Made by a program: the position numbers and the translations under genes. This document shows, piece by piece, positions 55,924 through 59,677 of a stretch of 64,000 nucleotides of DNA (position 1 is its first letter; every line of letters begins with the position of its first letter). Under the pieces are notes generated by a model. The model was not told the DNA's origin and made no database searches. It was given only the letters and a program-made list of their open reading frames with translations. The DNA is from Marispirochaeta sp. (GTDB lineage Bacteria; Spirochaetota; Spirochaetia; JC444; Marispirochaetaceae), in contig CAXXFF010000002.1 of assembly GCA_963676835.2 (NCBI GenBank), positions 1,312,001 to 1,376,000 on the forward strand, read 5' to 3'.

Positions 55924-56016
55924 ATGACTAAATGCAGATTTACTGTCTGGTCAGCATATCGACCGGTGTTTACCGCCTGGTACGGGTTTACGGATTTATC
56001 GGAGAAGGGACTCTAG
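55924..56016 (+). CDS. Putative 30-aa leader peptide MTKCRFTVWSAYRPVFTAWYGFTDLSEKGL
   Basis: AAGGAG 10 nt upstream; stop codon inside a hairpin, just ahead of a terminator. Confidence 0.4.
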   Translation: MTKCRFTVWSAYRPVFTAWYGFTDLSEKGL

Positions 56017-56039: not shown

Positions 56040-56072
56040 GCCGCAGCCCGTAAGGGGTTGCGGCTTTTTTTT
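56040..56072 (+). terminator. Intrinsic terminator 1
   Basis: gccgcagccc/gggttgcggc stem plus T8. Confidence 0.8.
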
Positions 56073-56171: not shown

Positions 56172-56378
56172 GTGGAACACAATTTTTACGAGGCATGGGC
56201 TATGGGCAGAGAGCGGCAGAAGGATCTTCTGGCAGAGGGGCATAGAAGACGGAGAGCTTCCTCCGTGGTTTCTCCTTCCGGGAGGTCGGGACTGAGGATG
56301 CGTGTAGGCGCAATGCTTATTGCCCTCGGGTTAAAACTGAGCGGGATCGATGAAGAATCAGGAGCTTCTGACCAGTAG
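56172..56378 (+). CDS. Small hypothetical protein (68 aa)
   Basis: AGGAGG RBS then GTG; RERQKDLLAEGHRRR…RMRVGAMLIALGLKLSG two-helix pattern. Confidence 0.65.
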   Translation: MEHNFYEAWAMGRERQKDLLAEGHRRRRASSVVSPSGRSGLRMRVGAMLIALGLKLSGIDEESGASDQ

Positions 56379-57332
56379 GTTGCCCGTAAGCTCAAGAAGC
56401 AGGTTCCGGGTAAGCCCTTCCCTGAGTCCGGACGCTTCATTTACGGCCCGGCGGGTATAGTTCTGTGCCAGTTCCCCGGCCAGAACTATGCCCCCCGCGG
56501 CCTCTATGGTTTCGGCCGCCTTTTTGAGGGTCTCGTCCTGGTATGGAGGTGTGCTGAGGATCTGCTTCAGCTCATCTCCGGCGGAACCCCTGAGGGTGTA
56601 GATAACTGGAGCGGTGAAAATGCCGTTTTTAATATCCCGGGCCAGGGGTTTTCCGGTACTGATCTCGCTGCCCTTTAAATCAAGAAGATCATCTTTAATC
56701 TGAAAGGCGATTCCTATGTTATAGCCGTATCTTCTGAATTGCTGGATCTCTTCCGGGCTGCAGCCGCTATGGCTTGCCCCCAGATAGAGGGAGGCGCCTA
56801 TGAGGGCTGCAGTCTTTGCTGCAATCTTCCGCTTGTATCTGCGCATACTTGCCGAAAGAGAGTACTGGTCATGATTCTGGTTGATCTCTCCTTCGCATAT
56901 GCGTTCAACCGCACGGCTGAAGCGTATTCCGGAAGTTTTCTCTATAAGATCTTCCATGAGGCCGAAGCTGCGGGCAAAAAGGTAGTCCCCCAGAAGCAGT
57001 GCTGTTTTTACCCCGGTGCTTATGTGCAGGGTTGTGCGGCCTCTTCTGGTCGCGGCTTCATCAAGAATGTCATCGTGTACCAGAGTGGCAAGGTGCAGGA
57101 GTTCCACCGCAGCAGCCAGCTGATAGAGGTCGTCCTGATTCTCCTTTCCATACCAGCCGCTTAAGAGTACAAGGGCGGGGCGGAGCATTTTACCTCCGCC
57201 CTCTATCAGGCTGGAGATGCTGCCGGCAATCAGGGGCGAGCTGTGCTGTGCGGTATCGGCGAGAATCTCCCGGACCCTGTCCAGTCCTTTGTCCAGTTCC
57301 GGGCTAATCCACAAGCTATTTCCTTCAGCCAT
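56358..57332 (-). CDS. Polyprenyl diphosphate synthase (HepT/IspB-like)
   Basis: GGKMLRP, HLATLVHDDILD, GDYL, KTAAL, AFQIKDDLLD. Confidence 0.92.
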   Translation of the reverse strand: MAEGNSLWISPELDKGLDRVREILADTAQHSSPLIAGSISSLIEGGGKMLRPALVLLSGWYGKENQDDLYQLAAAVELLHLATLVHDDILDEAATRRGRTTLHISTGVKTALLLGDYLFARSFGLMEDLIEKTSGIRFSRAVERICEGEINQNHDQYSLSASMRRYKRKIAAKTAALIGASLYLGASHSGCSPEEIQQFRRYGYNIGIAFQIKDDLLDLKGSEISTGKPLARDIKNGIFTAPVIYTLRGSAGDELKQILSTPPYQDETLKKAAETIEAAGGIVLAGELAQNYTRRAVNEASGLREGLTRNLLLELTGNLLVRSS

Positions 57333-57340
57333 GAGGAGCC

Positions 57341-59563
57341 TTAGGCTTTCTCCTTCTTTTTCCGTATTACCGGTTCTCCTGCATAGAGATGATATTTCTG
57401 TACAAGCTTTAAAGAGCGCCACTGTCGGTCAACAAAAGGGAGTACATAATGGTCCAGGCCGAAGGCTCGTCCGGCACCTCCCAGCATTACAACTGCGGCA
57501 AAAATAAACCAGAGCTGGCTCCAGCTGAACATCCCCGAAAAGATGAAAACAAAGCACATGATAATGGAGACACCTGCAGCGGGAAAGGTGAAGAGTCCGC
57601 CGATAAGGGCAAGGCCTATAAGCACTTCTGTTGCCACAACCATGGACTGAAAAAGCTGAAAGGGGATATGGGATGCAACTGCATCCATAAAGGTCTGCCT
57701 GAACCAGGTTACAAAGCCGGAATCGTAGGGGATGATTGTTTTGGCAGTATCCCAGACCAGCCCGAATGCATCCCCGGCAGCATCCGCCGCGGCGTGAACC
57801 GCTCCTTCTGCCGCATCCGAAGCGGCACTGACCGTATCCGCTACGGCATGCACTGTCTCTTCCGCCATATCGGTGGCTGCACTCACCGTGTCGGCTACTG
57901 CTTCGACCACCGGCTCCGCCATATCGCTTGCCGCACTTACCGTGTCTGCTGCAGCCTCTGCAACAGGCTCAGCCATATCACTGGCTGCGCTGACAGCTTC
58001 GGCGGCAGCCTCAGCCGCGGGTGCTGCCATCTCAGAGGCTGCACTGCCCGCATCGGCTGCGACTGCAACACCGGCCTGTACAACTCCGTGGCTGAACATC
58101 CAGGCTGATTTTGTCCCTGAGGCGAAGGATAACCAGCCTTCGCCGATTTTATTGACCCCTTCGGTGAGCCACATCAGGCCCAGCCAGAGGCGGAGGGGTA
58201 CTGCCCAGAATCCCTGGGGCCTGTAGGAGAGGTGATTGTGCAGGAAGGTTCTGCCGTCTTCCATGTGCAGGAATTCGTGCTTGATATAACCCCAGCAGGC
58301 GTTTATTCCGGCAATGCCGAAGAGGTAGTGAAGGTTTACCAGATGCTTGGTGGCCATTGCCATCATACCGCTGGTTTTTAATCCCATGGCATTTGACACG
58401 CAGTACCTGCTGCCGATTGATACCATGAATCCGTGGTAGTTGGATTTGAAGGGCTTTTTCTTTCCGCCCTTAATGGCTGCGGCTATATTCTCTGCCGCTG
58501 TCTCTCCTGTCTGCATGGCAGTTTCTACAATCTGGGGGAGAACCTTTCCCTCTTCAACAAACCACATATTGTCGCCTACGGCAAATATGGCCGGATCATC
58601 AGCGGTCTGCATGAATTCGTCCACAAGAATACGACCGCGTTTGCCAACGATATAGGTTTCTTCCTCTTCAAAGCGGCATCCGCACATACCGTGGATTCCC
58701 TCAGAGCTTGCGAAAGAGCATTCGCCTCTGGCGGTGTGTCCTTTTTCCAGGGCTGTACGGCTGGTGAACTCGGAACCATGAATTCCGCAAGTCCATACAA
58801 AGGTTTCTGTGGGGAGGGATCCTCCATCCTTAAAAATCACCAGGTTCTCTTCTGCGGCAACAATAGGTGAGTTCAGGCGTATCTCAACGCCTTTTTTCTT
58901 CAGGTATTTTTCAGTCTTCTTTCTGAGGGGTTCTTCAATTATGGGCAGTATTCTGTCCATGGCTTCGGCGATAACAATTTTCACATCTGCGGGATCAATA
59001 TTGTACCGGCGGCACAGCACATCCCTGCGTTCCATAAATTCACCGGCAAGCTCAATTCCGGTAAATCCGGCGCCGGCAACCACAAAGGTCAGCATCTGCT
59101 GCCGGGTTTCCGGATTCGGTTCTTTGGCGGCCAGCCGGTACCGTTCTTCGCAATGCTGCCGTATGCGGATCGCGTCTTCCAGAGACCAGAGGCTGAAGGA
59201 GTTTTCCTGAATTCCCTGAATGTCAAAGAACTCCGGAGCGCCACCGGTTGCAAGAACCAGATAGTCATAGGAGTAGGTTGCCTTTTCGGAGATCAGCTCT
59301 TTTTTTTGGGTATCCAGTCCCTTGATAACATCGGTTACCATGTTAACCCGGGATCCTGAGAAGATTCTGTCATAGGAGATCATAACTGAATCCGGATCTA
59401 CTCTGGATCCGGCAACCTCATGCAGTTCTGTCATCAGGGTGTGGTAGGTGTTTTTGTCTATAATGGTGATTTCAACCTCGGGGTTTTTCTTGAAAATTTT
59501 CCCGAGTTTCATTGCGGCGGTTATTCCGCCGTATCCGCCGCCCAGAATAACAATTCGTTTCAT
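57341..59563 (-). CDS. ndh: Type II NADH:quinone oxidoreductase fused to a C-terminal DoxX-like membrane domain
   Basis: GGGYGG, GAGFTGIELAGE, WTCG, AVGD; C-terminal LRLWLGLMWLTEGVNKI…EVLIGLALIGGLFT…GAGRAFGLD; AAGGAG RBS. Confidence 0.9.
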   Translation of the reverse strand: MKRIVILGGGYGGITAAMKLGKIFKKNPEVEITIIDKNTYHTLMTELHEVAGSRVDPDSVMISYDRIFSGSRVNMVTDVIKGLDTQKKELISEKATYSYDYLVLATGGAPEFFDIQGIQENSFSLWSLEDAIRIRQHCEERYRLAAKEPNPETRQQMLTFVVAGAGFTGIELAGEFMERRDVLCRRYNIDPADVKIVIAEAMDRILPIIEEPLRKKTEKYLKKKGVEIRLNSPIVAAEENLVIFKDGGSLPTETFVWTCGIHGSEFTSRTALEKGHTARGECSFASSEGIHGMCGCRFEEEETYIVGKRGRILVDEFMQTADDPAIFAVGDNMWFVEEGKVLPQIVETAMQTGETAAENIAAAIKGGKKKPFKSNYHGFMVSIGSRYCVSNAMGLKTSGMMAMATKHLVNLHYLFGIAGINACWGYIKHEFLHMEDGRTFLHNHLSYRPQGFWAVPLRLWLGLMWLTEGVNKIGEGWLSFASGTKSAWMFSHGVVQAGVAVAADAGSAASEMAAPAAEAAAEAVSAASDMAEPVAEAAADTVSAASDMAEPVVEAVADTVSAATDMAEETVHAVADTVSAASDAAEGAVHAAADAAGDAFGLVWDTAKTIIPYDSGFVTWFRQTFMDAVASHIPFQLFQSMVVATEVLIGLALIGGLFTFPAAGVSIIMCFVFIFSGMFSWSQLWFIFAAVVMLGGAGRAFGLDHYVLPFVDRQWRSLKLVQKYHLYAGEPVIRKKKEKA
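57788..58057 (-). repeat. Five in-frame 54-bp (18-aa) tandem repeats inside ndh
   Basis: ADAGSAASEMAAPAAEAA / AEAVSAASDMAEPVAEAA / ADTVSAASDMAEPVVEAV / ADTVSAATDMAEETVHAV / ADTVSAASDAAEGAVHAA. Confidence 0.95.
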
Positions 59564-59648
59564 ATGCAACAGCTCCTTCGAGTAATTGTAGTCAAAGAAA
59601 TAGCTATACTGTGTTTACATGAAACGTTATTCGGTATTTATTTACTCA

Positions 59649-59677
59649 ATTATAGAAGAAAGAGGTCCGTGAGTCAA
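59649..59677 (-). promoter_or_regulatory. Sigma-70 promoter of the ndh-prenyl synthase operon
   Basis: TTGACT-17-TATAAT on the minus strand. Confidence 0.8.

Follow-up and report, generated by a model that had tools for sequence, protein, structure and literature searches.

In the window analyzed here, a stretch of 64,000 nucleotides of Marispirochaeta sp. DNA (GenBank assembly GCA_963676835.2, contig CAXXFF010000002.1, positions 1,312,001 to 1,376,000), the reverse strand carries ndh2, a gene for a type II NADH dehydrogenase (NDH-2) fused to a DoxX-like membrane domain, and a dmkB-like gene that starts 9 nt past the ndh2 stop. The open reading frame (ORF) of ndh2 encodes 740 aa from an ATG, or 742 aa from a TTG at 59569, and its product matches Pyr_redox_2, Pyr_redox, and DoxX in Pfam, the last slightly below the cutoff of 23.6 bits (23.1 bits; E 1.2e-4). 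Judged by its sequence, the spirochaete gene is an orthologue of the Ndh2 of flavin-based extracellular electron transfer (FLEET), as it is 39% identical to Listeria Ndh2 in alignment and is the best match, over both domains, in a tblastn search of this genome with the Listeria protein. A search from a distant relative likewise reached the Listeria gene between pplA/fmnB and eetA/eetB/dmkB (annotated as fmnB-pplA-ndh2-eetA-eetB-dmkB), and the Enterococcus loci have the same layout. In the first loop of its membrane domain, the Marispirochaeta protein carries five copies of a motif that resembles the site to which the flavin transferase ApbE attaches flavin mononucleotide (FMN), and we consider it probable from the sequence comparisons below that at least some of these sites are flavinylated.

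The motifs, of the form [DE]xxSAA[ST], follow each other at a pitch of exactly 18 residues (54 nt); in 100,000 shuffles of the 106-aa loop there were never more than three of them, and ndh2 is the sole ORF with at least two in a six-frame scan of the genome. An earlier note on this DNA, made from the letters alone, had described the five motifs; all were found, inside 57788..58057 and in exact 18-aa repeats, and its placement of the repeat loop between the first and second DoxX helices agrees with the helices predicted at residues 451-474 and 635-655 (Table 1). The DNA of the five repeat copies is 52-72% identical from copy to copy and uses both Ser codon families, which argues that the array is old and not a recent product of slippage. 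Phase-variable slippage was ruled out for this genome, as the copies are just 52-72% identical. In a relative (locus L014), the repeat units of 66 nt are 98-99% identical, reflecting recent expansion, and repeat expansion is an evolutionary process rather than ongoing slippage at this locus.

Table 1. Features of ndh2 and its surroundings, in coordinates of the window
Feature	Positions	Strand	Basis
ndh2, FLEET-type type II NADH dehydrogenase fused to DoxX-like membrane domain	57341..59563	-	740 aa, Pfam and Listeria alignment
NDH-2 catalytic domain, cytoplasmic (about aa 1-432)	58268..59563	-	Pfam, Foldseek
Membrane helix 1, predicted (aa 451-474), with invariant R, W, E, K	58142..58213	-	model helix and invariant columns
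Loop 1 (aa 475-634), predicted to be periplasmic, with a variable repeat core between conserved edges	57662..58141	-	charge bias and models
Repeat core rich in Ala/Glu (aa 499-600), five units of 18 aa with amphipathic-helix periodicity	57764..58069	-	sequence analysis
Motif 1, DAGSAAS, aligned with canonical SGAS site of Listeria Ndh2	58034..58054	-	sequence, profile alignment
Motif 2, EAVSAAS	57980..58000	-	sequence
Motif 3, DTVSAAS	57926..57946	-	sequence
Motif 4, DTVSAAT	57872..57892	-	sequence
Motif 5, DTVSAAS	57818..57838	-	sequence
Membrane helices 2-4, predicted, DoxX-like (aa 635-697)	57473..57661	-	Pfam and models
Basic C-terminal tail, predicted cytoplasmic	57344..57472	-	charge count
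dmkB-like polyprenyl diphosphate synthase	56358..57332	-	Pfam polyprenyl_synt E 1e-62; 34% to Listeria DmkB
Sigma-70-like promoter 5' of ndh2	59649..59677	-	11/12 consensus matches

Homologues were compared in a close set of 120 proteins (the query and 119 others), which gave 114 delimited loops after 6 were set aside, and in a distant set of 149 representatives, many of them fragments, which yielded 46 loops. The close set holds 288 strict motifs in its 114 loops, compared with 5.1 +/- 2.1 after shuffling, and 104 of the loops have at least one, with 0 to 7 copies in loops of 33-152 residues. The residue after [DE]xx[ST]AA is Ser in 203 cases, Thr in 82, and another in 5 (n=290), and so the hydroxyl is kept while Ser and Thr exchange freely; position -6 is Asp in 71% and Glu in 18%. 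In the distant set, a motif is present in 39/46 loops (1.2 after shuffling) while the remainder of the loop is unalignable, and the position of the canonical Gly holds Ala 33 times, Ser 20 times, and Gly 7 times. Among 80 metagenome loci, 63 were parsed, and the motif core is present in 54 of these, the other 9 being two that were misparsed and seven that appear by eye to be degenerate versions. Loss of the D..SxA[S/T] register among homologues, which the earlier note would have counted against its reading, was not what we found, as D..[ST]xA[ST] is conserved across the family; the repeat number that it proposed to compare varies from 0-1 to 7 copies, with recent expansion in some lineages.

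The canonical form of the site, D-x-x-[ST]-G-A-[ST], is approached more closely outside the spirochaetes. Clostridial-type homologues have [ST]GAS in 111 of 120 proteins (a highly redundant set), Listeria Ndh2 (L035:7183-7875) has a canonical SGAS at the aligned loop 1 site, and the Enterococcus gilvus and Enterococcus raffinosus proteins have TGAS there. In a profile alignment whose second profile was mostly of Firmicute type, with a few spirochaete-like rows included, the first spirochaete motif falls on the Listeria SGAS site, and the C-terminal profiles align at a probability of 100%. Because Firmicute Ndh2 has the canonical form at the aligned site, the Ala form is, on this alignment, a lineage variant, the same site being canonical in other members of the Ndh2 family. 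In a tree of 48 catalytic domains, the Gly-form sequences of Listeria, Enterococcus, and clostridia form one group (99) and those of spirochaete type, mostly of the Ala form, another (94), although this tree was made by a quick method with a midpoint root and no outgroup, so that the ancestral form is undecidable from it. The Ala form also occurs as a single copy, with no array, in L024, L025, and L151. As a separate observation, two Enterococcus proteins (L036 and L038) have a second, Ala-form copy 11 residues after the canonical core.

What is published about ApbE leaves room for such sites. A Gly-to-Ala mutant keeps about 50% of flavinylation (PMC12052999, a review citing Bertsova 2019 and Tong 2021), and according to the same review Asp-to-Ala changes in the motif have minor effects and a seven-residue tag is enough for flavinylation, also in a surface loop. 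ApbE modifies motifs carried by an extension that is unstructured and by a loop insertion (PMC11334425).

The motif scan of the genome also led to a second protein with the Ala form, P0410 (G000:C1:937376-937891 on the reverse strand; L039:3377-3892), which has 172 aa, a signal-peptide-like start, and the motif DAVTAAS. Its family shares a conserved GVDxx[ST]AA[ST] and an invariant Met and Trp near the C terminus, and its gene lies upstream of one for a membrane protein with FAD- and NAD-binding domains (FAD, flavin adenine dinucleotide) and a weak match to ferric reductases (E 0.057). Matches were found in 17 of 151 genomes of the class; the ORF was recovered in 16 loci, and the reductase adjoins it in all 16. 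Asp at -6 and a final Ser/Thr are present in all 16 loci, the Ala-Ala form in 12, and Gly in none. This layout resembles MsrQ-like ApbE systems (PMC8238504). The short flanks of the P0410 loci hold no apbE, and P0410 gave no Pfam, PDB-sequence, or named Atlas match, its alpha/beta, flavodoxin-like look being a judgment by eye only. Going by its sequence and gene neighborhood, P0410 represents an unannotated candidate family of spirochaete ApbE substrates, independent of Ndh2.

To be a substrate, the loop would have to face outward, and it is probably periplasmic. We place it outside because the catalytic domain lies inside, the membrane domain has four predicted helices, and the charges are biased: the repeat loop has 3 K/R and 24 D/E compared with 10 K/R and 4 D/E in the C-terminal tail, a bias shared by 106 homologues, where K/R account for a fraction of 0.02 in the repeat loop and of 0.24 in the tail. 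In a wide fold search, the membrane domain matched TMEM35A (Z 10.5, root-mean-square deviation [rmsd] 2.9, 113 residues aligned), which is below the safe level of the tool for helical bundles, and otherwise only generic helical bundles; a Foldseek search with this domain alone gave no match at E <=0.001. The claim of the earlier note that the loop lies opposite the NADH domain is therefore in line with the predicted topology, which likewise rests on the charge bias and the TMEM35A-like four-helix fold.

The repeat loop is quite likely an amphipathic helix with its acceptor residues in register, a shape suggested by periodicities in the sequence. Spacings from motif to motif peak at 11, 14-15, 18, and 22 residues and fit best to an angle of 98-100 degrees in the close set (254 spacings; 98 without near-duplicates) and of 100 degrees in the distant set (35 spacings; 27 without near-duplicates; jitter p 0.0009, uniform-null p 0.017). 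The hydrophobic moment has its maximum at 95-105 degrees in 93 of 104 multimotif loops (0.22 compared with 0.08 after shuffling), and since both measures peak near 100 degrees, insertions appear to have kept the helical phase. Val, Ala, and Trp occupy one face and Glu/Asp the opposite one, with the acceptor Ser/Thr at the border. Pro in 56 and Gly in 189 of 254 units weigh against a single unbroken helix. Were the helix continuous, neighboring sites would be 16-33 A apart, at 1.5 A per residue, which is marginal for hopping from FMN to FMN. In one clade (P0012, P0016, P0019, P0033, and P0042), the loops also contain a conserved nonmotif unit (His-Gly-Asp-Met/Tyr ... Phe-Asp ... Asn) among the repeats. 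Of the earlier interpretation of ndh2, the multisite flavinylation-like loop is retained; the "flexible wire" is not borne out, as spacings and hydrophobic moment indicate an amphipathic alpha-helix and many orthologues have one site, and the FLEET orthology of the gene had been missed.

The FLEET genes are dispersed in this genome. A dmkB-like gene is present in all 21 ndh2 loci examined and a pplA-like gene in 4 of them. In PMC8238504, clusters associated with flavinylation are recognized by an apbE or FMN-binding gene nearby, whereas only dmkB is adjacent to ndh2 in this genome; such a gene does lie nearby in relatives L014, L017, L018, L042, L044, and L045. The genome contains apbE (E 2e-89), the presence of which the earlier note had suggested checking, about 1.18 Mb from ndh2 on the same contig, at about 185,860-186,900 of G000:C2, and besides apbE and dmkB there are scattered matches to eetA, eetB, and dmkA, those to eetA (E 5e-7) and eetB (E 4e-5) being weak yet adjoining each other. 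No pplA was found in this genome, which is 97% complete, with Listeria, Enterococcus, or spirochaete queries; a pplA-like gene is present in four of five congeners and was not found in the closest one (G258). This may be a natural FLEET system without PplA, with ndh2 and dmkB kept in both this genome (G000) and G258 and with dmkA, eetA/B, and apbE in G000. In Oceanispirochaeta (L016:1030-6465), a pair of flavocytochrome/fumarate-reductase-like genes, of which one has an FMN-binding domain, is divergent from ndh2 and offers a candidate periplasmic acceptor for the Ndh2 pathway. A 466-aa lipoprotein-like protein with fibronectin type III domains (G000:C2:1115712-1117109 on the reverse strand; L040:3713-5110) has a canonical DAVSGAT outside any FMN_bind match and is a possible further ApbE substrate.

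These observations lead us to a model of an outward flavin relay, which as a whole we regard as somewhat better supported than not by the sequences. The FAD of Ndh2 would be reduced by NADH on the cytoplasmic side, and electrons would cross the membrane via a naphthoquinone made by DmkA/DmkB or via a quinone held by the DoxX domain. ApbE, fed with FAD exported by the EetB route, would link FMN to every D-x-x-[ST]-[G/S/A]-A-[ST] of loop 1 at its final Ser/Thr. Spirochaetes would have copied this site several times to build an acidic amphipathic helix, which would either rest on the inner membrane's outer surface or pack against a partner. The acceptor residues would then form a row where its hydrophobic face meets its acidic one, and Ala at the Gly position would suit such a helix. 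From the membrane, electrons would move to the FMNs and on to periplasmic flavoproteins, free flavins, or metal acceptors. Because the sites would be about 27 A apart, the array is more likely to act as parallel sites or a small electron buffer than as a long wire.

Genetic data from Firmicutes fit a flavin on Ndh2. Enterococcus faecalis needs Ndh3 and EetB, though not PplA, to reduce iron, and what donates the electrons directly is described as unknown (PMC9864754); EetB exports FAD for FmnB (PMC9973259); and in Lactiplantibacillus plantarum, the reduction of iron that depends on flavin needs Ndh2 as well as EetA/B while PplA and DmkA/B are dispensable (PMC9888254). An FMN borne by Ndh2 would account for the finding that iron reduction in Enterococcus and Lactiplantibacillus depends on FAD export and can do without PplA; these genetics come from E. 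faecalis and L. plantarum, and the Enterococcus sequences compared here are those of E. gilvus and E. raffinosus. We also put forward, tentatively and as a proposal that may well prove wrong, that the FLEET Ndh2 of Firmicutes and spirochaetes is the indispensable substrate of ApbE and the outward electron donor that has so far been missing, that the spirochaete form is a domain-free multi-FMN helix, and that Dxx[ST]AA[ST] is a second ApbE code, shared with the P0410 family.

A number of points weigh against flavinylation and the relay. All five copies in Marispirochaeta depart from the canonical motif by having Ala at the Gly position, a caveat that the earlier note had raised and that is largely answered by the canonical Firmicute orthologues, the Ser/Thr kept at the last position, the mutant that retains about half of its flavinylation, and the P0410 family; Gly is found in just 3 of 295 motifs of the close set. 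Ala occupies position -3 in 56 of 349 cases, 7 of the 46 distant loops lack a motif, and Asp is absent from position -6 in Listeria and Enterococcus. Since four FMN-binding-domain proteins of this genome have canonical GAT motifs, the same ApbE would need to accept both the Gly and the Ala forms, and ApbE may act poorly on a Ser that is embedded in an unbroken helix. In the structure models, the pLDDT (predicted local distance difference test) score of the repeat is below 50 (over residues 502-602), and the models disagree on its helix content, one showing the repeat as half disordered and the other as one long helix. Co-occurrence with apbE is weak support: of 251 genomes of the phylum, 10 encode Ndh2-DoxX and every one of these has apbE, but they are kin and not independent, and 185 of the 251 have it regardless; apbE is in just 3 of 21 ndh2 loci; and among metagenome loci of at least 10 kb it is near ndh2 in 10 of 27 with a motif and in 2 of 5 without a strict one, giving no separation. 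Electron transfer from quinol to FMN is uphill for unbound FMN. Binding by proteins shifts FMN potentials (PMC9888254); Ndh2 has no FMN_bind (PF04205) domain match and no folded FMN-binding domain that could tune the flavin. Among the Listeria FmnB substrates named in the published text used here, there are only PplA and FrdA.

The most serious rival to flavinylation, which we nevertheless consider unlikely, is that the repeat of spirochaetes goes unmodified and serves as a structural amphipathic helix, either like those of apolipoproteins or as a noncanonical coiled coil of 11/18/22-mers; it would derive from an ancestral flavinylation site, act at the membrane surface, in oligomerization, or in binding a partner, and contain Ala copies that are no longer substrates. 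Such a helix would account for the spacing phase, the amphipathy, and the near absence of Gly from the close set, as small residues suit packing and the Asp at -6 lies on the acidic face. It accounts less well for the preference at -6 for Asp over Glu (71% compared with 18%) where acidic spacer positions favor Glu, and for an end hydroxyl kept in 285 of 290 motifs though Ala would serve a helix better; single-copy Ala forms exist outside arrays, and the Ala form is also conserved in the unrelated P0410 family. Neutral low-complexity expansion in a tolerant loop, with a functionless motif, is scarcely credible despite the variable loop length of 33-152 residues and the few homologues without a motif: motifs are 57-fold above shuffles and conserved across phyla, insertions hold the helical phase, and the motif residues were retained while the DNA copies fell to 52-72% identity.

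O-glycosylation is known on Ala-rich regions of envelope proteins in Neisseria and Burkholderia, and the predicted outside location, the Ala/Ser-rich composition, and the conserved hydroxyls would all be consistent with such sugars on the loop Ser/Thr. We regard this as very improbable, as there is no Wzy_C/O-antigen ligase (PF04932) match in the 97%-complete genome (the control matched 9 of 14, and a PF11846 control was silent), an Ala/Ser-rich stretch occurs in just 3 of 3712 ORFs, of which the other two look cytoplasmic by their N termini (identities assigned by eye), and the orthologous Gram-positive site is SGAS within FLEET loci. The serial multi-FMN wire across the periplasm proposed in the earlier note, its length set by copy number, shares all the evidence for flavinylation, and up to 7 copies, an in-register geometry that would align the flavins, and the failure to find a pplA-like gene in this genome or its closest relative speak for it. 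It is still improbable: steps of 18 and 22 residues would be about 27 and 33 A, long for hopping, and many orthologues manage with one copy. A homologue with 7 copies (L014) adjoins a pplA-like gene, and congeners with 3-5 copies retain one, so that copy number does not track PplA loss; a role of the extra copies as a replacement for PplA was ruled out on the same grounds.

Several further features of the locus bear on the enzyme and its surroundings. The model of the catalytic domain matched the Caldalkalibacillus NDH-2 in Foldseek (E 2e-38, rmsd 1.6), the structure model of Ndh2 resting on an alignment of 89 sequences, and the membrane helices of the DoxX domain contain invariant Arg, Glu, Lys, and Gln residues in alignment columns. 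An insertion of about 30 aa in the catalytic domain (aa 275-305; window ~58630-58740, reverse strand) has three Cys and two His, is common to L025 and absent from the aligned Firmicute orthologues, and is a possible metal or redox site. The promoter in Table 1 is a consensus match only, two such matches having been found compared with a shuffle mean of 3.5, a count that is not significant. ORFs on the opposite strand at 57449-58108 and 57873-58226 were taken as shadows of ndh2. Elsewhere on the forward strand, a 30-aa aromatic-rich ORF (55924-56016) lies behind a strong Shine-Dalgarno-like sequence and is followed on its 3' side by a terminator-like hairpin, GC-rich and with a run of T (56040-56072); downstream of the hairpin, a second small ORF (~56173-56378) has its own ribosome-site-like sequence, and these may be a leader peptide or small proteins.

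The protein itself is known, as the FLEET Ndh2 of Listeria monocytogenes and L. plantarum and Ndh3 of E. faecalis; that of Listeria has the same two-domain form, a linked dmkB, and the motif at the same loop position. Marispirochaeta differs in being a diderm host with scattered genes, no pplA found, and five Ala-form motifs in a helical array compared with one Gly-form site. ApbE substrates with motifs outside FMN-binding domains include the C-terminal extension of FMN_red, the Flavodoxin_4 insertion, DUF2271, DUF3570, and NqrB/RnfD (PMC11334425, PMC8238504), and the Ndh2 loop resembles them in placing a short motif on a loop or extension, NqrB/RnfD showing that membrane proteins are eligible, but differs in repeating it, with Ala for Gly, in a low-complexity amphipathic segment of a DoxX domain. 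Multiflavinylated proteins have up to 13 FMN-binding domains (PMC11334425, PMC8238504) and, like Ndh2, several predicted sites per chain in variable number at a predicted extracytosolic location, yet they devote a folded domain of about 120 aa to each FMN, whereas the Ndh2 loop has a predicted site every 11-22 residues, without a domain and within an NADH dehydrogenase. The four-helix domain, the weak DoxX match, and the TMEM35A fold match recall the DoxX/DoxD family (DoxD of thiosulfate:quinone oxidoreductase [TQO]; TMEM35A), and some Ndh2 homologues have DoxD and MauE Pfam matches; fusion to NDH-2 and the large loop 1 set Ndh2 apart, and quinone binding there is putative. In the titles and abstract openings surveyed, no Ndh2 flavinylation site, natural Ala-form motif, or such repeat is described (supplements, which could bear on this, were outside that scope), and term look-ups in 10.1101/2023.01.13.524026, PMC8837199, and PMC12051747 returned nothing relevant, so that the loop site, the Ala form, and the helical array appear undescribed. 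The tryptic peptide that contains the motif has 60 residues in Listeria and 123 in Marispirochaeta, and routine tryptic proteomics would for that reason probably miss the site.

How FLEET bacteria pass electrons on from the membrane to iron outside the cell is described as unknown, and screens are reported to have turned up no gene beyond those of the locus (PMC9864754). The dispensability of PplA, the need for EetB, and the lack of an extra-locus gene would all be compatible with a flavinylation site borne by Ndh2. If the Ala form is not modified, the spirochaete protein would be a FLEET Ndh2 orthologue like any other except for its unusual helical loop. If it is, the ApbE substrate code would be broader than the canonical motif, and motif-based catalogues would have missed a set of substrates. 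The 18-residue repeat, with one FMN per five helical turns, would then also provide a compact scaffold for engineered flavin arrays.

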